Source of the DNA: Oscillospiraceae bacterium
GTDB taxonomy: Bacteria; Bacillota; Clostridia; Oscillospirales; Ruminococcaceae
Assembly: GCA_018434245.1 (NCBI GenBank)
Contig: JAHDPQ010000003.1
Location: 10,972-74,971 of the forward strand
Direction: 5' to 3'
DNA: 64,000 bases
This document shows, one piece after another, positions 15,298 to 46,442 of this stretch. The position numbers and the translations under genes are program-made. Positions within the stretch are counted from its first letter, which is position 1, and every line of letters begins with the position of its first letter. The notes under the pieces were generated by a model, which made no database searches, was not told the DNA's origin, and saw nothing but the letters and a program-made list of their open reading frames with translations.

Positions 15298-16080
15298 ATG
15301 TCAAAGATGAGTTCTGCCGCCCCATTTTCCAACCTGATCCGCCTGCTGTTTACCCTCGGTTTTGGGCTTTGCCTTTTGTTTGGGCTAACTCCCCCTTTGC
15401 TCTACGGCATCTGGAACAGCGGCGTGGCGGCCTTGCTGTTGACCGCACCGCTTCTGTTATTCCTTTCCCGAATGTGGAAGGTTCTGCCCTGGGGAGTCCG
15501 GCGGGGAATCGCCCTTTTTTTATTGCCGTTGGTGGTCGCTGCTACCATCCTTTCTATGGCCATGGCCCATCAGGCATGGTTTTCCCCTCCGCCACCGTCA
15601 CAGTCTTTGCCGGTGGTGGTGCTGGGCGGGGGCATCCGTGGGGACCGACCCTCTCTCATGCTGGCCCGAAGGCTCCGCGCCGCCGCCCTCTATTTAGAGG
15701 AGCACCCTCAGGCCATCTGTGTGGTCAGCGGAGGGCAGGGACAGGATGAGGATTACCCCGAAGCTCAGGTGATGGCCGCCTATCTGGAGGAGCTGGGAAT
15801 CCCCTCTCAACGGATTCTGCAGGAGGTCTGCTCCTCCAACACCCAGGAAAATCTGACCTTTTCCTGGGAGGTGCTGGAAGAAGTTCTGCCTCATTTGGAG
15901 GAAATATCCATTGCCACCGATGGCTTTCATCAGCTGCGGGCAGCCTTTTATGCTTCCCATATGGGGCTGAAAGCCTACTCTATCCCTTCTCCCACCCCTT
16001 GGGGGCTGCTGCCCAGCTACTGGCTACGGGAATGGATGGCCCTTCCGGTGGCGTGGGTTACCGCAAACTTTGCAAAATAA
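15298..16080 (+). CDS. YdcF/DUF218 family membrane protein
   Basis: N-terminal TMs, VVLGGG, VSGGQG..EAQVMAAYL, SSNTQENL, IATDGFHQLRA, YWLRE. Confidence 0.85.
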   Translation: MSKMSSAAPFSNLIRLLFTLGFGLCLLFGLTPPLLYGIWNSGVAALLLTAPLLLFLSRMWKVLPWGVRRGIALFLLPLVVAATILSMAMAHQAWFSPPPPSQSLPVVVLGGGIRGDRPSLMLARRLRAAALYLEEHPQAICVVSGGQGQDEDYPEAQVMAAYLEELGIPSQRILQEVCSSNTQENLTFSWEVLEEVLPHLEEISIATDGFHQLRAAFYASHMGLKAYSIPSPTPWGLLPSYWLREWMALPVAWVTANFAK

Positions 16081-16100
16081 CCATGGATAAGGAGAGCCTT

Positions 16101-16625
16101 ATGAAGGGAAATACAACCTTTGTCTTCACTCTTTTGGTAGACAATGAATTTGGTGTTCTCACCCGCATTACCGCCCTGATTCGCCGGGCGGGCTGGAACA
16201 TCCGCTCTCTATCGGTGGCGGAGACCAAAACAACGGAGGTTTCTCGGCTGACCATCTGTCTGGAATGCCGCCACTATACCTTGGAGCAGGTGCTGGACCG
16301 TTTGAGCCGCCTGGATTGTGTGCGGAAAATCCTCCCTTATTCCAAAGAAACACAGGTGGCCCGGGAGCTTGCGCTGCTTCACCTTGAGACAACGGATGAA
16401 GCCGTTTTGCAACAGATTTGCCGGGAGCTGAGCGCCACCCCGCTGGAGCATAAGGGCGGCCACGTCATTTTGTCGGCGGTCTGCGAGGAAGGGCTGTTGG
16501 ACCAGATGCTGCCCTGGCTAAGGGAGCAGGGACTGGTGGACATTGCCCGTACCGGCGCCATTTCTTTGCGCCGCAGCTTAGATTGCAAGGAGGAAGCTTC
16601 CCGTGAAACAGCCTGTTCCCAATAA
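16101..16625 (+). CDS. ilvN: Acetolactate synthase small-subunit-like ACT domain protein (divergent; no large subunit in window)
   Basis: LLVDNEFGVLTRI..GWNIRSLSVA, SRLTI, RELALL, IARTGAISL; ATG at 16101 after AAGGAG. Confidence 0.75.
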   Translation: MKGNTTFVFTLLVDNEFGVLTRITALIRRAGWNIRSLSVAETKTTEVSRLTICLECRHYTLEQVLDRLSRLDCVRKILPYSKETQVARELALLHLETTDEAVLQQICRELSATPLEHKGGHVILSAVCEEGLLDQMLPWLREQGLVDIARTGAISLRRSLDCKEEASRETACSQ

Positions 16626-17691
16626 AATCTACCGCATTCTTGTCATCAATCCCGGTTCCACCTCCACCAAGCTGTCGGTGTATGAAAACGAGGAAGAGGT
16701 GGTGGGCCAAAGCTACCGCCATTCCCGCTCCGAGCTGGACGCCGCCGGAAGTGTCTCCAAACAAAAGACCATGCGCGCAAACTACGCCTACAATATGCTC
16801 AACGAGCACGGCATCTCTTTGGACAGTCTGGACGCCGTGGTGGGGCGAGGCGGTTTGGTTCAGCCCATCGATAGCGGAACCTATCTGATCAGCGAGCGGA
16901 TGCTGGCGGATTTGATCAGCTCCACCGCCGAGGTTCACGCCTCCTCCCTGGGGGGAATCATCGCCTACGAAATCGCTGCTCAGGCCGGAGTGCCCGGCTA
17001 CGTGGTGGACCCCATTGTAGTGGATGAGTTGGAGCAGGTGGCCAAGCTCACCGGGTTCCCCGGTATCGAGCGGAGAAGCGTCTTTCACGCCCTCAACCAA
17101 AAGGCAGTGGCCCGGTGCTGCGCCGCCGATATGGGGATGAAATACGAGGATTGCCGCTTTATTGTGGCTCATATGGGTGGCGGTATCACTGTAGGTGCCC
17201 ACCGCTATGGCAGGGTCATTGACGTCAACGACGCCATTGCGGGAGAAGGCCCCTTTACTCCCGAGCGGTGTGGTCAGGTTCCCATCAGTCAGGTAATTTC
17301 CATGTGCTTTTCTGGTGCCTATACGGAAGAGGAGCTTCAGAAGATGACCAGCGGAACCGGAGGAATGTATGCCTATTTGGGCACCAACGACCTGCAAAAA
17401 TGCGAACGGCTCATTCGGGAGGGGGACGAGTACGCCGCTCTGGTACTGGAATCCATGGCCTATCAGGTTGCCAAGGAGATCGGGGCCATGTCCGCCGCTT
17501 TGGAGGGCCGGGTAGACGCCATTATCCTCACCGGAGGCCTTGCCTACTCCACCCGGTTTACCGGAGTGATCAAACAGCGGGCCGGACTGATCGCCCCCAT
17601 CAAGATTTACCCCGGCGAAAATGAAATGCTGGCTCTGGCTCAGGGTGCTCTGCGGGTGCTCCGGGGGGAAGAGCAGCTGCTGACCTACTGA
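16603..17691 (+). CDS. buk: Butyrate kinase / branched-chain carboxylic acid kinase
   Basis: ILVINPGSTSTK, VVGRGG, HASSLGGIIA, HALNQKAVAR, HMGGGITVGAH, GEGPFTPER, YPGENEM; GTG after AGGAGG. Confidence 0.92.
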   Translation: MKQPVPNKIYRILVINPGSTSTKLSVYENEEEVVGQSYRHSRSELDAAGSVSKQKTMRANYAYNMLNEHGISLDSLDAVVGRGGLVQPIDSGTYLISERMLADLISSTAEVHASSLGGIIAYEIAAQAGVPGYVVDPIVVDELEQVAKLTGFPGIERRSVFHALNQKAVARCCAADMGMKYEDCRFIVAHMGGGITVGAHRYGRVIDVNDAIAGEGPFTPERCGQVPISQVISMCFSGAYTEEELQKMTSGTGGMYAYLGTNDLQKCERLIREGDEYAALVLESMAYQVAKEIGAMSAALEGRVDAIILTGGLAYSTRFTGVIKQRAGLIAPIKIYPGENEMLALAQGALRVLRGEEQLLTY

Positions 17692-38948: not shown

Positions 38949-40247
38949 TTAGATATACCCCAGCACTTTGGGCAAAAACAGGCTGACGGCAGGGACAAAG
39001 ATGATGATGGCCAACACCGCCAAATAGGTAAAGTAAAAAGGCAAGAAGCCTTTGAGAGACTTTTCGATAGGAATATTGGCGATGGCGCATCCGGCCCACA
39101 AGGAGGTTCCTACAGGAGGGGTGAGAAGCCCCAGTCCCAGAGTCAGAACCATAATCAGGCCAAAGTGGTAGGGGTTGTAGCCGATGGACATGGCAACGGG
39201 ATACAGAATGGGAGTCAGCAGGATAATGAGGATACCCATGTCCATAAAGCAGCCCAGCGCAACCATCATCAGCACCATCATCAGCATAACCACAATGGGG
39301 TTATCGGAAACGGCGGTCAGAGCCGTCGCCACCCGGATGGGCACCTTGAGGTAGGAAAGCACATAGCTAAAGGCACTGGAGGTGGCGATAATGGCCATAA
39401 TGGTGCTCAGAGTTTTCAGGGATTTTAGCAGACAGCTCACAAACTTTTTAAAATTCATGGTCTTGTAGAAGAAGGTGGTGATAATCAAAGCATAGACGGC
39501 GGCAATGGCTCCCGCCTCGGTGGCGGTAAACACGCCTGCCGTAATACCCACCGCCACAATCAGAATGGTGACGAGACCCAAGATAGCTTCCCGCACAATC
39601 TGAATGTTCTCACGCCAGGAGCGTTTTTCGGAGATGGGGTACTTCTTTTTCACCGCAATCACATAGGAGCAGATGGAAAGGGCCAAGGTCAGCAGCACGC
39701 CGGGGATGTAGCCGCACATAAACATGGTGCTGATGGAAAGGCCGCTGCTGGCCGCCACGATGTAAAAGATCATGTTCTGGCTGGGTGGGATGATGACTCC
39801 CTCCACCGAGCTGGTACAGGTGACTGCCACGCTGTAGTCGGCGTCGTAGCCTTCCTTGACCATGGCGGGAATCAGAAATGCACCGATGGAGGAGACGTCG
39901 GCGATGGAAGAGCCGGAGATTCCGCCAAAGAACATAGAAACCACGCAGTTCACAATGGCGGTGCCTCCCCGCATTCTGCCCACCAGAACGTTGCAGAAGC
40001 GGGTCAGGCGGTCCGAAATGCCGCCATCGGTCATAATCTGTGCCATGATGATGAAGAAGGGCACACACATAAAGGTAAAGCTGGTAATACCGGTGGACAT
40101 CTTCTGGAACAGGTTGAGGAAGGGGATGTCCAGATAGATGGCGGTAAACAGCGCAGAAATTCCAAGGCTGAAGGAAATAGGCACCCGCAAGCACATCAAA
40201 ATAATCAAAGAGGCAAAGAGGATGGTGGTTCCAACGGCGATGTTCAT
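38949..40247 (-). CDS. dctM: TRAP transporter large permease
   Basis: VPFFI, GGISGSSIADVS, IIPPS, TATEAGA, TPPVG. Confidence 0.92.
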   Translation of the reverse strand: MNIAVGTTILFASLIILMCLRVPISFSLGISALFTAIYLDIPFLNLFQKMSTGITSFTFMCVPFFIIMAQIMTDGGISDRLTRFCNVLVGRMRGGTAIVNCVVSMFFGGISGSSIADVSSIGAFLIPAMVKEGYDADYSVAVTCTSSVEGVIIPPSQNMIFYIVAASSGLSISTMFMCGYIPGVLLTLALSICSYVIAVKKKYPISEKRSWRENIQIVREAILGLVTILIVAVGITAGVFTATEAGAIAAVYALIITTFFYKTMNFKKFVSCLLKSLKTLSTIMAIIATSSAFSYVLSYLKVPIRVATALTAVSDNPIVVMLMMVLMMVALGCFMDMGILIILLTPILYPVAMSIGYNPYHFGLIMVLTLGLGLLTPPVGTSLWAGCAIANIPIEKSLKGFLPFYFTYLAVLAIIIFVPAVSLFLPKVLGYI

Positions 40248-40804
40248 ACGGTCCCTCCCCTTTCCACATTTAAGTCGTCGATGGTTTTTTCTTTAGAAGC
40301 TTCTTCCTCGTACTCGGAAAGAGGCTTAATGAGGGCAGCGATAAAATTAAAGGCTGCGTACAGCACCATAAAGATTCCCCCTACCACCAGCGGAGCGAAC
40401 AGCCAGCCCTGAGAAAACCGGGTGGCGGGCTGAGGCTTGGGAATATTCATCTTTGTGATGGTAGAACCGTAGATGGTCATTTGCACAAACAGCCAGCCCA
40501 GCAGTCCGTGGCGGAGCAAATCTGCCCCTTTGCGTAAGGCGGGAGGCATCTTGTTGTACAAAAAGTAAAGAGCCGCGTGACCGTCGGTGTAAATATCAAT
40601 GGACATACAAATATAGCCAAACCATACCAAAAACATCAGGGTAGCTTCTTCCGACCAGCTAAAGGGCGCCCGGAATACAAAGCGCATCACCACCTGAACG
40701 AATGTAATGGCAAGCATAATGGTCAGCAACAGGGCACAGATATGGCGTTTGAACTCTACCAGCTTATCAAGAGCATGTCGGATTTTATTAACAGCATTGC
40801 TCAC
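40244..40804 (-). CDS. dctQ: TRAP transporter small permease
   Basis: QVVMRFVF..WSEE, four TMs; GTG at 40804 after AGGAGG. Confidence 0.88.
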   Translation of the reverse strand: MSNAVNKIRHALDKLVEFKRHICALLLTIMLAITFVQVVMRFVFRAPFSWSEEATLMFLVWFGYICMSIDIYTDGHAALYFLYNKMPPALRKGADLLRHGLLGWLFVQMTIYGSTITKMNIPKPQPATRFSQGWLFAPLVVGGIFMVLYAAFNFIAALIKPLSEYEEEASKEKTIDDLNVERGGTV

Positions 40805-40827
40805 CAGCTTACTCCTCCTTTGCGAAA

Positions 40828-40874
40828 ACGAAATCACCGTATTCCCATATGGCAGCGAAATACGGTGATTTCGT
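40828..40874. other. 16 bp-stem inverted repeat between dctP and dctQ (candidate mRNA-stabilising or partial-termination hairpin)
   Basis: ACGAAATCACCGTATT-15 nt-AATACGGTGATTTCGT. Confidence 0.6.
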
Positions 40875-40897
40875 CAGTCTATGCTAGATTTTTTCCC

Positions 40898-41947
40898 TTA
40901 AGCAACAGCTTGAATCTTTGCAATGACGTCGGTGTATTGAGGGTACATGGCATAGATGTCGGAAACACTGTTCTGGAACTCTTTTGCATCTACTTCATAA
41001 ACAGTGCAGCCAGCTTCTTCTACCTTGGCGCGGGCTTCGTCCTGATAATCCTGCATGGCTTTTCTCTGCCAGGCGCAGGCTTCCTTTGCGGCTTCCCGCA
41101 CAGCTTCCTGCTGGCTGGGGCTCATTTTGTCCCAAGAGGTTTTGCTCATCAGCACCATGGCAGGCGGAGCCATGTGGCCGTCCAGCGTGTAGTAGGGAGC
41201 AACCTCGTAGTGGCCGGAGGTGTAGTAGGAGACAAAGTCGTTCTCGGCGCCGTCGATCACGCCGGTCTGCAGGCCCTGATAAACCTCACCGTAAGCCATG
41301 GGAGTGGCAGCGCCGCCCAGCAGCTCTACCATCTTGATAGCCACGTCGGACTGCTGCACCCGCAGCTGCATGCCCTTCAGGTCGGCTACGCTCTGCACAG
41401 GCTTCTTCACGGTGTAGAAGTTGCGGGAACCGGCCTCCCAGTACTCCAGGCCGATCATGTTGTACTCTACTAGGCTATCGCTGACTTCCTGTCCAATTTC
41501 GCCATCCAGAACCTTGTACTTGTGCTCGGTGCTGGTGAAGATGTAGGGCAGGGTGAAGACACCAACCGCATCAGCGGTGGAAGCAAGAGCAGAGGTATTG
41601 ATGCGGGCAAAGTCAAGGGTTCCGGCCTGAACCTGATCGATGGTCTCGTTTTCGTTGCCCAGCTGTGCATCCAGATACACTTCGATGGTAATGTTGCCAT
41701 TCGTCTTTTCCTTCACCAGTTCGGCGAACATTTCAACACCCTGAGAAACAGGGTTGTCCTTGCCCTGGTTTTCGGCAAGCTTAAAGCTGAGAACGGGTTC
41801 GTCCGCTGCGGGGGTGCTTTCGCTGGCGGCGCCTTCACTTCCGCTGGCAGCAGGGGCTGCCGGGGATTGATTGCCGGAGTTGCCACAGGCAGTCAGGGGC
41901 AACGCCATCATGAAAATAGTTAAGATAAGAGCAATAGATTTTTTCAT
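40898..41947 (-). CDS. dctP: TRAP transporter solute-binding lipoprotein
   Basis: Lipobox LTACG, LGNENE, GSRNFY, DLKGMQLRVQ, TPMAYGEVYQGLQTGVIDGAEN. Confidence 0.92.
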   Translation of the reverse strand: MKKSIALILTIFMMALPLTACGNSGNQSPAAPAASGSEGAASESTPAADEPVLSFKLAENQGKDNPVSQGVEMFAELVKEKTNGNITIEVYLDAQLGNENETIDQVQAGTLDFARINTSALASTADAVGVFTLPYIFTSTEHKYKVLDGEIGQEVSDSLVEYNMIGLEYWEAGSRNFYTVKKPVQSVADLKGMQLRVQQSDVAIKMVELLGGAATPMAYGEVYQGLQTGVIDGAENDFVSYYTSGHYEVAPYYTLDGHMAPPAMVLMSKTSWDKMSPSQQEAVREAAKEACAWQRKAMQDYQDEARAKVEEAGCTVYEVDAKEFQNSVSDIYAMYPQYTDVIAKIQAVA

Positions 41948-42059
41948 AACATTTCCTTTCACTTTCTCAATATGTTTTATTGATCTCTGAAGCCGAAGGC
42001 CCCAAAGATGAATACGGTGTTGGTAGGTGGCCAGTTGCGCTGCAGATTTCTATCCCTGA

Positions 42060-43127
42060 CTAGATAAAGTCTTGGAAAAAGTGCAGGTTATTTTTCATGA
42101 TAACGCTGATGGGTACGGTCATTTTGTCGTTTTCCGGCAGGATATTCTTAATCACGTAGGAAAACAGCACTTCAAAACCCAGATGTCCCTTATCATAGGC
42201 ATTTTTATAAATCAGCGCCTGCAAAATGCCCTGCTTTAAAAACACGGCATTCTGTGGGAACAGGTCGCTGCCCACTCCCCGCAACTTGCCCGCCAGCCCG
42301 CAGTCGATCACCGCTTGAGTGAGGGGGACAGTGTCACGGGCAGTCACCGAATAGAACGCCACAATGTCGGGATTGGTTTGCAGTAGCGCCATGGATTCTT
42401 CGTAACACTTTTGGTAATCGCCGTAGTTTTGCATCACCAGCAGCTCAAAATCCCCTGCCGATTCCTCCAGATACTCGGTAAAGCCCTGCAGGTTGTGCAT
42501 GTGGGCCGCATGGGCCGCGCTGCCGCTGGCGATAAGAATTTTACCCGGCTTATGAGTGATGGACGTTAGAATTTCGGCTCCCAAACGCCCTGTCAGCTGG
42601 TCGTGAGGAGCAATGCAGCACAAACGGCCGCTGTCCTTCAGGTCGCTGTCGATCAGCACAACGGGAACGCTTTTATAGGAAAAGCGCTCCACCGCCTGCC
42701 GCAGGTCCTCATCGTTCTGAATCGGCATGGTCAGCAGACCGTCGTACTCAGTGTTGCCGTTATCAAACAGCTTATCCAAAATTTGAATCTGATGATTTTT
42801 ATCTTCTTCAAAGGGAAAATACTCAATCTGAACATTCAGACTGCTGGCTTCGGCTTGATAGGTCTCGATGGCATCCCAAAAATACTTGTGATAATATCGC
42901 CCGTTCCCTTCCCTTTGAGGCAAAACCACTGCCAGCCGCTTGGTTTTGCGCTTTAAGGAAGAGGCGATGTAGTTGGTAGTGTACCCCAAGGCATCGGCAC
43001 GGGCCAAGACGGCCTGCCGCAGCTCTTCGCTGATGCCCTCCTTACCGTGAAGGGCGCGGTGTACCGTGGTGCGCGAAACATTCATATCTGCCGCTATTTC
43101 TTTTAGCGTCACCCGATTACTCCCCAT
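42060..43127 (-). CDS. LacI family transcriptional regulator
   Basis: VTLKEIAADMNVSRTTVHRAL HTH, NYIASSLK, periplasmic-binding-protein-like C-terminal domain. Confidence 0.9.
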   Translation of the reverse strand: MGSNRVTLKEIAADMNVSRTTVHRALHGKEGISEELRQAVLARADALGYTTNYIASSLKRKTKRLAVVLPQREGNGRYYHKYFWDAIETYQAEASSLNVQIEYFPFEEDKNHQIQILDKLFDNGNTEYDGLLTMPIQNDEDLRQAVERFSYKSVPVVLIDSDLKDSGRLCCIAPHDQLTGRLGAEILTSITHKPGKILIASGSAAHAAHMHNLQGFTEYLEESAGDFELLVMQNYGDYQKCYEESMALLQTNPDIVAFYSVTARDTVPLTQAVIDCGLAGKLRGVGSDLFPQNAVFLKQGILQALIYKNAYDKGHLGFEVLFSYVIKNILPENDKMTVPISVIMKNNLHFFQDFI

Positions 43128-44286: not shown

Positions 44287-44304
44287 TCCCTGTACCTGTG
44301 AAAA

Positions 44305-44347
44305 AGCCACCTTTGGTTGCAGTGTTCCGCTACAACCAAAGGTGGCT
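44305..44347. terminator. Hairpin between convergent genes (probable terminator)
   Basis: AGCCACCTTTGGTTG..CAACCAAAGGTGGCT. Confidence 0.7.
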
Positions 44348-44368
44348 ATATTTTGTTAGGGGAAGGTT

Positions 44369-46063
44369 CTACGCAATCTTGCCGCTTTTGTCCTTTTCCT
44401 GCCGGGCCAGCTGCTTGATAGCCCATTCCCGGAGTTTGTACTTCTGGATTTTTCCGCTGGCGGTCATGGGGAACTCCTCCATAAACTCCACGTAGCTGGG
44501 CACCTTGTGACGGGCCATGTTATCCCGTACAAAATCTTTGATTTCCTCGCCGGTACACTCCTTGACAAAGTCCCGCAGCTTGATGCAGGCCATAATTTCC
44601 TCGCCGTAAATCTTGCTGGGAATCCCAATCACCTGAACATCCTTGACCTTGGGATGGCGGTAGAGCAGCTCTTCGATCTCCTTGGGGTAGATGTTCTCGC
44701 CCCCCCGGATGATCATATCCTTGATGCGTCCGGTGATGCGGTAGTTTCCGTTTTCGTCCACGGTGGCCAAATCTCCGGTGTGGAGCCAACCGTCCTCGTC
44801 AATGGCCTGACGGGTGGCCTCTTCCATCTTGTAGTAGCCCTTCATGATGTTGTAGCCCCGTGCGCAGAATTCACCCTGACCCTCTCCCGGGCCGATCTCC
44901 TCTCCGGTTTCGGTGTTGATGATTTTGCACTCCACTCCCGGCAAAGCTCGGCCAACGGTGTTAACTTTGGTTTCGAAGTCATCGTCGCAGGTGGTCTGGG
45001 TGCAACCGGGGGAAGATTCCGTCTGGCCAAATACAATGGTGATGTCCTTCATCCCCATCTTTTCGATGACCAGCTCCATAGCCTTAGCAGGGCAGGGAGA
45101 CCCGGCCATAATGCCAGTGCGCAGCTTGGGGAACTTGTACTTTGGGAATTCCGGGTGTTCAAAGACGGCGATAAACATGGTGGGAACCCCGTGAACAGCG
45201 GTGCACTCCTCATCCTGGCAGGCCTGCATAAACTTGATGGGGTTGTAGTATTCCAAAGGGACCATGGCGCTTGCGTGGGTGACGCAGGCTGTGATGGACA
45301 ACACCATGCCGAAGCAGTGGAAGAAGGGAACGGGGATGCAGAGCTTATCCTCCTCGGTGAACTTCATCCGGTCCCCGATGGACATGCCGTTGTTAATGAT
45401 GTTGTAGTGGGTGAGCATGACTCCCTTGGGGAACCCTGTGGTGCCGGAGGTGTACTGCATGTTGATAATATCGTGGTGATGGAGGCTGTCCCCCACCATA
45501 TGGAGCTGACGGTCGGGGATGACCCGGCCCATTTCCTCCACCTGCTCCCAGGCAAACATCCCCTTAGGGGTCTTGTGGTCGCCTACATAGACAACAGACT
45601 GGAGGCAAGGGAACTCGTTGTTGTGATAGGTGCCGGGGTAGTATTCCCCCAGATCGGGCAGAAGCTTGTAAATGGTCTCCACATAGTCCACGTCTTTAAA
45701 GCCCTGGGTCATCACCAGCACCTTGCTATCGCTCTGTTTGAGCAGATACTGGAGCTCAAACACCTTGTAATTGGTGTTGACGGTGACCAGCACCGCCCCG
45801 ATCTTGGCGGTGGCAAAGAAGGTGATAAGCCACTCGGGAACGTTGGTAGCCCAGATGGCTACCTTGTCGCCTTTTTTGACGCCCATTTTGATAAAGCCCT
45901 TGGCCACCTTGTCACATTCCTCGTTAAACTCTTGCCAGGTGCGCTCATAGTCCCGGTCAATATACTTGACAGCCTGCCGGTCGGGAAAGCGGGAGGCGAT
46001 ATCATCCAGCAGCTTGCCAAAGGTAATCTCCATAAACGGCTTGGTAATCGGTGTGGTAGTCAT
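44369..46063 (-). CDS. AMP-forming acyl-CoA synthetase (ANL superfamily)
   Basis: YTSGTTGFPKGVMLTH, VFGQTE, LHTGDL, GRIKDMIIRGGENIYPKEIE, TASGKIQK; ATG at 46063 after AAGGAGGAG. Confidence 0.9.
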   Translation of the reverse strand: MTTTPITKPFMEITFGKLLDDIASRFPDRQAVKYIDRDYERTWQEFNEECDKVAKGFIKMGVKKGDKVAIWATNVPEWLITFFATAKIGAVLVTVNTNYKVFELQYLLKQSDSKVLVMTQGFKDVDYVETIYKLLPDLGEYYPGTYHNNEFPCLQSVVYVGDHKTPKGMFAWEQVEEMGRVIPDRQLHMVGDSLHHHDIINMQYTSGTTGFPKGVMLTHYNIINNGMSIGDRMKFTEEDKLCIPVPFFHCFGMVLSITACVTHASAMVPLEYYNPIKFMQACQDEECTAVHGVPTMFIAVFEHPEFPKYKFPKLRTGIMAGSPCPAKAMELVIEKMGMKDITIVFGQTESSPGCTQTTCDDDFETKVNTVGRALPGVECKIINTETGEEIGPGEGQGEFCARGYNIMKGYYKMEEATRQAIDEDGWLHTGDLATVDENGNYRITGRIKDMIIRGGENIYPKEIEELLYRHPKVKDVQVIGIPSKIYGEEIMACIKLRDFVKECTGEEIKDFVRDNMARHKVPSYVEFMEEFPMTASGKIQKYKLREWAIKQLARQEKDKSGKIA

Positions 46064-46104
46064 AGCGCTCCTCCTTGATACAAATAGATTTATTTGCATT
46101 TTAG

Positions 46105-46390
46105 GGGAAAACAAAACAGCCTTCGTCTTCCCAAAAGGAAGACGAAAGCTGCAAATACACTTCCGCGGTACCACTTCCATTGACATGTTACCATGCCCGC
46201 TCTGTCACGTCTTATGGCAAAAGCCTTTTCAACGCGCTCCCCTTGTATCGGTGGGGAAATCCGTCCTCGCCTACTTTGTTCAGCTTGGCTGCTCAGGGGT
46301 GAGTTCTTCCGCCGCGGACCTGCCGCATCTCAGCTACCGCGGCTCTCTGAAAGGTCCTTGGACAGGGTACTATTCCCCATCAACGCATTG
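46105..46390 (-). ncRNA. T-box riboswitch, Leu (CUC) specifier
   Basis: Minus strand: GCGTTGATGGGGAATAGTA start, AGAGAG and GCTGAG boxes, GAA-CTC specifier (46303-46301), stem II GAAC/AGTA, antiterminator GGAAG-TGGTACC-GCG..CGT-CTTCC (core 46165-46178), terminator hairpin with T-tract 46108-46150. Confidence 0.9.
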
Positions 46391-46413
46391 ACACTATTAA
46401 TATCTTGCCATTC

Positions 46414-46442
46414 ATCATAGCATGGCAAAAAGCCTTTGTCAA
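46414..46442 (-). promoter_or_regulatory. SigA promoter feeding the T-box leader
   Basis: TTGACA-17 bp-TATGAT with a TG extended -10. Confidence 0.8.

Follow-up and report, generated by a model that had tools for sequence, protein, structure and literature searches.

Branched short-chain fatty acids serve anaerobes of the rumen, the gut and digesters as starting material for branched-chain amino acids, as has been known since the 1960s, and ruminants are fed isoacid supplements for that reason. In rumen bacteria, leucine formation through the carboxylation of isovalerate has been reported (Allison et al., 1966, as cited in PMC7356843), and in our literature search the activation step of this pathway came without an assigned gene. 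Leucine-specific T-box riboswitches, for their part, precede leuS, leuA and ilv-leu operons, where they combine membership in the RNA family RF00230, a CUC specifier, recognition of tRNA-Leu(GAG) and an attenuation design; that of Geobacter leuA is read by tRNA-Leu(GAG) (PMC2700814). Scavenging of branched short-chain acids is the task of MbcS from Staphylococcus aureus and Macs from Methanosarcina acetivorans, two adenosine monophosphate (AMP)-forming ligases, and MbcS serves lipid synthesis in a paper that mentions no T-box (PMC10026030). Here we describe a locus on the minus strand of a 64,000-nucleotide (nt) stretch from an Oscillospiraceae bacterium (GCA_018434245.1, contig JAHDPQ010000003.1; hereafter the window, whose numbering is used for all coordinates given without a contig or locus handle), in which a T-box of this same leucine type stands ahead of a gene for an AMP-forming acyl-coenzyme A (acyl-CoA) ligase.

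We propose that this gene encodes an isovalerate-CoA ligase. Gated by the leucine T-box, the enzyme would feed the isovalerate-carboxylation route to leucine, a mechanism that, taken as a whole, we hold with moderate confidence. The transcription unit concerned occupies positions 44300-46442 and comprises the following features:

46414..46442, minus strand: sigma-70-type promoter TTGACA-17-TATGAT, TG-extended, with 11/12 consensus matches
46135..46392, minus strand: full-length T-box leader of family RF00230, with Stem I, Stem II/IIA-B, Stem III and antiterminator (Rfam covariance model)
46300..46302, minus strand: specifier codon CUC (Leu) in the context GAA-CUC-A-CCCC (covariance alignment)
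46162..46168 (plus or minus 1-2 nt), minus strand: T-box bulge UGGUACC within the antiterminator (covariance alignment and folding)
46116..46152, minus strand: intrinsic terminator of the leader, a 17-bp stem followed by UUUGUUUU (folding)
44369..46063, minus strand: gene of an AMP-forming ligase of 564 amino acids (P0001), ANL superfamily, nearest PRK12583 (translation and domains)
44300..44347, minus strand: intrinsic terminator 3' of the ligase gene, an 18-bp stem followed by U5 (folding)

The leader matches RF00230 at 46392-46135 on the minus strand with 103.3 bits (E 1.1e-21), over model positions 1-219 and above the Rfam gathering score of 93, which bears out the complete T-box that a first, sequence-only reading of this DNA had recognized. 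The codon read there as the leucine specifier is the one that the covariance model places in the specifier loop: GAA-CUC-A-CCCC is aligned on the consensus GAA-a-uuc-a-CC, with CUC on 'uuc' and the conserved purine after it. The T-box sequence of the leader is AAGUGGUACCGCGG, and the UGGU of its bulge is complementary to ACCA, the 3' end of a tRNA whose discriminator is A73. The same genome does encode such a tRNA-Leu(GAG), found by aragorn at C80:2966-3051 with the 3' end ...CATCTGC-A-CCA, so that the earlier match of the bulge to the A73 of tRNA-Leu stands. The antiterminator with its 7-nt bulge folds with -13.2 kcal/mol, and the 86-nt stretch 46190-46105, which includes the leader terminator, with -34.1 kcal/mol (z-score -4.58; all 200 shuffled versions folded less well). 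Both structures use the strand UUCGUCUUC and are mutually exclusive, as the antiterminator/terminator pair of the sequence-only reading would have to be.

The other parts of the unit were found as first described. The promoter is near-consensus, with the TG extension (TG-n-TATGAT) upstream of its -10 hexamer, and a single acyl-CoA ligase gene lies directly behind the T-box, starting at an ATG (46063) preceded by an AGGAGG site and running to 44369. The hairpin that follows it is a strong terminator (-31.6 kcal/mol, z-score -7.25), and the next gene, Rce1/CPBP-like, is convergent, so the ligase unit is monocistronic. On its upstream side, the unit is preceded by a cheW-like gene with a terminator of its own.

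To see how far the pairing of T-box and ligase is kept, orthologous loci were collected in two sets, namely 80 ligase loci of 56-94% identity from a contig scan with one genome per species (L015-L094), and an evenly drawn sample of 151 genomes of the order to which the window belongs; specifiers were read from MAFFT alignment columns and checked on Rfam alignments. In 32 of the 80 loci of the first set, a T-box motif immediately precedes the ligase or a fused form of it, and all leaders aligned from these loci and the window (33/33) have CUC in the specifier column, while the leader sequence around it has diverged. This placement is confirmed by Rfam alignments for a varied set of 10, among them those of Ruminiclostridium hungatei, Pelotomaculum propionicicum and metagenome-assembled genomes (MAGs) of Marvinbryantia, Christensenellaceae and Mahellales. 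In the second set, exactly one ligase orthologue is present in 89 of the 151 genomes, and the T-box found at 15 of the 29 best loci carries CUC each time (15/15). Pooling both sets, CUC is thus found in 48/48 leaders ahead of orthologous ligases, and because it is kept in all of them and in both samples, we regard the ligase as a member, predicted from comparative data, that recurs in the leucine T-box regulons of anaerobic Clostridia.

These counts also bear on the simplest alternative, that the T-box is vestigial or stands next to the gene by chance, and that the enzyme is a general fatty-acid ligase unrelated to leucine. The generic names of the NCBIfam and Pfam families matched by the enzyme would fit such a view, as would the roughly half of the orthologues that have no T-box. 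Yet all 48 leaders keep the codon despite their diverged sequence, promoter, antiterminator and terminator are intact, and the genome contains parallel isoleucine and valine cases, described below. Since the score of the leader exceeds the curated cut-off and the arrangement is kept in dozens of genomes, chance is excluded; the arrangement of T-box leader and ligase is non-random, and we give this alternative almost no credence. A partial glmS ribozyme (L058:1-105, plus strand, 44.4 bits) that precedes the T-box-ligase locus in an Oscillospiraceae MAG is unrelated to it.

The protein itself is a regular member of its superfamily, with the domains PF00501 (305.9 bits) and PF13193 (66.6 bits) and the ANL motifs YTSGTTGFPKG, GQTE and, at the C-terminus, SGKIQK. 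Its best curated family is NF009233/PRK12583, the 'fatty acid CoA ligase family protein', which it resembles over the full length (756 bits, residues 7-555) while scoring under the curated cut-off of 832 bits, so that this is its nearest family and not one to which it belongs by threshold. Bacillus subtilis YngI, encoded in the leucine-catabolic yng cluster, may belong to this family. The MbcS family NF047394 (cut-off 850 bits) is not among the 25 best families for P0001, and the matches in the PDB are distant ANL enzymes only (feruloyl-, malonyl- and oxalyl-CoA synthetases, FadD13), mainly covering the C-terminal two thirds. Homologues with at least 65% identity abound in Oscillospiraceae, Anaerotruncus, Ruminiclostridium and Acetivibrionales, all of them annotated as just 'AMP-binding protein' or 'fatty-acyl-CoA synthase'. 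As far as sequence can tell, P0001 by itself points to no substrate. The neighbors of Desulfuromonadales orthologues were considered as a clue to it and set aside as uninformative (EF-G and a peptidase).

The substrate proposed here comes from the company that the ligase keeps, first of all within its own genome. Ten T-boxes were found there, the ordinary targets being tyrS, pheST, thrS, cysE-cysS and leuA, the last with a CUC T-box of its own (G000:C131:18774-19042). A valine T-box (GUA; G000:C20:22157-22402, minus strand) stands ahead of a ligase of 584 amino acids (C20:20315-22069; L011:6316-8070), and an isoleucine T-box (AUC; G000:C181:18817-19071, plus strand) is followed by an open reading frame (ORF) with a helix-turn-helix (HTH) and a cupin domain (L012:5132-5749) and a ligase of 551 amino acids (L012:5812-7467). 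The genome thus holds isoleucine and valine T-boxes on paralogous ligases, which the sequence-only reading had proposed to look for, and a search with NF009233 returned three ligases only, those gated by leucine, valine and isoleucine T-boxes. Relatives have, upstream of the isoleucine ligase, an open frame that is about 200 amino acids longer (about 760-800 amino acids in total), an indication that ligase and HTH-cupin module are fused in those genomes. For the valine- and isoleucine-gated enzymes the best family is MbcS (447 and 457 bits, under the cut-off of 850), and the valine-gated one matches PDB 3ETC with 661 bits; we take this structure to be that of Macs from M. acetivorans, reported to prefer 2-methylbutyrate. 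MbcS/Macs-like ligases occur in 104 of the 151 genomes of the order, usually in two copies, and their readable leaders in relatives carry AUC, or GUA/GUC. Purified MbcS activates 2-methylbutyrate and isobutyrate, isovalerate being a poor substrate (PMC10026030), and because of this a leucine branch would need a ligase of a different family.

MbcS also brings in another possible fate of the product. The ligase could make isovaleryl-CoA as the starter of iso-odd branched fatty acids, in which case leucine would be spared and not made: MbcS, the best family of the valine and isoleucine paralogues, passes scavenged branched acids on to FabH (PMC10026030), the condition sensed by a T-box would be precisely that in which amino acid-derived primers drop, and one acyl-CoA could serve both fates, which makes the lipid role not exclusive of salvage into leucine. 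T-box-controlled genes, however, generally restore the charging of their cognate tRNA, and the gene neighborhoods of the ligases point the same way. They contain IlvE, a VorB-type oxidoreductase and a LeuA-like gene and not fab genes, and in one lineage ligase and oxidoreductase form an operon. We therefore consider a role confined to lipid primers quite unlikely.

As to these neighborhoods, a comparison of coordinates showed at least 18 genomes in which the leucine-type ligase and a pair of MbcS-like ligases are no more than 12 kb apart, and in each of the three such clusters examined the first T-box is specific for isoleucine (AUC) and the second for valine (GUA). The cluster of genome G139 (L178, G139:C8:97500-115500; minus strand 17122-2290) extends over about 15 kb on one strand and consists, in order, of an isoleucine T-box with its ligase, a valine T-box with its ligase, a C-N hydrolase, IlvE (442 bits, cut-off 307), a 218-amino acid protein, the alpha (VorB; 535 bits, cut-off 399), beta and gamma subunits of the oxidoreductase, a short LeuA-like gene (469 amino acids) and an orthologue of the window ligase fused to a TIM barrel; the roles of the C-N hydrolase, the 218-amino acid ORF and the short LeuA-like gene are unexplained. 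An operon found in three further genomes (G001, G002, G003) begins with the orthologue and continues with the TIM barrel and the gamma, delta, alpha and beta subunits of an oxidoreductase of the pyruvate/2-oxoisovalerate family. AMP-forming ligases run toward thioester synthesis, and this is why such an operon would lead from an acid to its acyl-CoA and on to the 2-oxoacid.

The source genome has the same two partners at a distance. A VorB-type oxidoreductase, of the kind that a route from acyl-CoA to 2-oxoacid calls for, is encoded with delta, alpha, beta and gamma subunits at C30:1023-3591, its alpha subunit scoring 543 bits on NF005507 (cut-off 399) and being 61% identical to that of the G139 cluster, and IlvE is found at C26:5026-6090 (471 bits on NF009897, cut-off 307; 49% identical to IlvE of G139). 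Concerning de novo synthesis, tblastn and hidden Markov model (HMM) searches of the assembly found leuA, leuCD-like genes, ilvD, ilvA and an ilvB fragment, and the same searches did not find leuB and ilvC in this 91% complete assembly of 185 contigs. For the leuABCD set, leuA and leuCD-like genes are thus represented and leuB is not, although it is present in the nearest relative: the genome whose ligase is 94% identical has both leuB and ilvC, on the same contig as its ligase (G154:C20:95472-99752). Since leuA and the ilvB fragment lie, moreover, at contig ends of the source assembly, we rejected auxotrophy for branched-chain amino acids, and the missing leuB and ilvC are probably an artefact of assembly gaps. 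Salvage and de novo synthesis of leucine would probably coexist, both under CUC T-boxes, and because the de novo route is probably also there we see the ligase as an auxiliary entry for salvage and not as a replacement.

Several observations weigh against isovalerate as the substrate, or against the leucine connection as a whole, and the most serious of them concerns a partner protein. A TIM-barrel gene of the AP_endonuc_2 (xylose isomerase-like) type lies directly 3' of the ligase in 21 of the 80 loci of the first set, and in about 16 more the barrel is fused to the N-terminus of the ligase, giving a protein of 843 amino acids. Examples of the ligase with an adjacent or fused barrel are L086:1625-4153 of P. 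propionicicum and L116:2885-3697, and the barrel often stands behind the same leucine T-box. The isovalerate route needs no such step, and the true substrate of the family could differ. Beyond this, P0001 has no characterized close relative among those found, its model being a generic NCBIfam one matched below the cut-off; the T-box is missing from the aforementioned half of the orthologues; the operon of ligase and oxidoreductase was observed in a single lineage; and in the source genome neither the oxidoreductase nor IlvE is linked to the ligase or has a T-box.

With the barrel adjacent or fused in 37 of 80 loci (about 46%), the description of the ligase as stand-alone in the sequence-only reading holds for the locus in the window and fails for the family. 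One may then imagine that ligase and TIM barrel run an undescribed two-step pathway linked to leucine on a precursor other than isovalerate, and that the stand-alone copy uses that same acid. CUC T-boxes stand ahead of nine of the fusions, an Amidohydro_2 gene follows the ligase in four loci, and no informative relative of the barrel was found by sequence searches of Pfam, NCBIfam and the PDB (best PDB match E 6.5e-06; best NCBIfam match 40 bits, fructoselysine 3-epimerase), all of which would suit such a pathway. The source genome, however, has no close copy of the barrel, the matches being weak (24-34% identical), and since it keeps T-box and ligase nonetheless, the ligase can apparently work alone here. 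In addition, the fused form shares the G139 cluster with IlvE and VorB, and no alternative leucine precursor that calls for activation with CoA is evident. We judge a different substrate unlikely, and still take the barrel as a sign that the chemistry of the ligase family may be richer than plain activation of isovalerate. It is mainly because this partner is unexplained that our confidence in the full isovalerate mechanism does not go beyond moderate.

In the isovalerate mechanism that we favor, the leader would respond to leucine shortage as established T-boxes do, for which it shows the sequence features. The anticodon of uncharged tRNA-Leu(GAG) would pair with the CUC specifier in Stem I, and its free A73-CCA end with the UGGU bulge, whereby the antiterminator would be stabilized and transcription would read through into the ligase gene. 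The ligase, driven by adenosine triphosphate (ATP), would then convert exogenous isovalerate, abundant in the anaerobic digesters and wastewater that this organism inhabits (the runs found to hold the locus are wastewater, sludge and digester metagenomes, none of them RNA), into isovaleryl-CoA. The VorB-type oxidoreductase would reductively carboxylate this to 4-methyl-2-oxopentanoate, from which IlvE would form leucine. Comparative genomics thus supports what had been suggested from the window, namely activation of isovalerate upon leucine starvation as the entry to a salvage route, with the substrate predicted from genomic context. This salvage would run beside de novo synthesis, where leuA is likewise under a CUC T-box, and the leucine ligase would be one of three, the isoleucine (AUC) and valine (GUA) ligases of the MbcS/Macs type presumably serving 2-methylbutyrate and isobutyrate.

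Two more T-boxes of the source genome have targets that recall salvage. A tyrosine T-box (UAC; G000:C121:34093-34350, plus strand) lies ahead of a beta-eliminating lyase of the tryptophanase/tyrosine phenol-lyase family (L014:2432-3898). The match of this lyase to PRK13238 amounts to 576 bits and that to the tyrosine phenol-lyase model to 436 bits, short of the cut-off of the latter; this suggests that tyrosine is made from phenol on tyrosine starvation. A tryptophan T-box (UGG; G000:C67:18298-18546, minus strand) precedes a stand-alone TrpB-like pyridoxal phosphate enzyme (L007:48-1436, minus strand; NF009057, 664 bits with a cut-off of 366), presumably another target of the salvage type, yielding tryptophan from indole and serine. 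One can extend the scheme to a modular regulon in which leucine, isoleucine and valine T-boxes gate ligases for isovalerate, 2-methylbutyrate and isobutyrate, a VorB-type oxidoreductase and IlvE are shared by the three branches, salvage of tyrosine and tryptophan goes alongside, the specifier serves as a label of the substrate, and the TIM barrel is an extra activity of the leucine branch. This wider picture is tentative, and we would put it a little short of an even chance.

Two further sets of genes were noted elsewhere in the window. About 1.2 kb past the 3' end of the ligase gene and on the same strand, positions 40244-43127 (minus strand) encode a regulator of the LacI family together with a TRAP transporter of the DctP type (251 bits for DctP, plus ORFs of the sizes of DctQ and DctM), separated from the ligase by the convergent CPBP-like gene and two terminators; in this neighborhood of the ligase, we found no evidence that the transporter handles branched acids. 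At 15999-17691 (plus strand), the reading frame of an IlvN-like ACT protein (107 bits; small-subunit family of acetolactate synthase) overlaps the 5' end of a butyrate kinase gene (502 bits), with no ilvB near the pair. The two may constitute a second route for the activation or release of short-chain acids, possibly under amino acid control.

If the isovalerate mechanism is right, the specifier codon would be a direct prediction of the substrate for a widespread enzyme (89 of the 151 genomes of the order) that is named merely 'AMP-binding protein', and the activation of precursor acids would be a new class of T-box regulon targets. Cross-feeding on isovalerate, isobutyrate and 2-methylbutyrate would, by implication, be governed by amino acid starvation and not by the availability of the acids. 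Should the modular regulon hold as well, specifier codons could label the substrates of enzymes that otherwise defy annotation.

Compared to the described systems, the leader is a familiar one and its target is not. Our literature search turned up no description of T-box control over acyl-CoA ligases, nor is there one in Wels 2008, Sun 2013 with its supplements or the TBDB preprint, although Vitreschak 2008 or Gutierrez-Preciado 2009 could mention it. Known leucine T-boxes act on an aminoacyl-tRNA synthetase, on genes of de novo biosynthesis or on a transporter, whereas the one described here acts on an acid-CoA ligase. With MbcS and Macs, which are the best matches of the valine and isoleucine paralogues, the ligase has AMP formation in common, but it is gated by leucine and falls into another ANL subfamily, nearest PRK12583. 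As for the isovalerate-to-leucine pathway, the chemistry proposed here (activation, reductive carboxylation to 2-oxoisocaproate, transamination) and the anaerobic habitat are the same; the known pathway comes with labeling data and an activation step for which we found no assigned gene, whereas the locus offers a candidate gene and a putative control logic. The T-box mechanism and the carboxylation of isovalerate were thus both known, and what appears to be new is that a known class of riboswitch would act on a new class of target.

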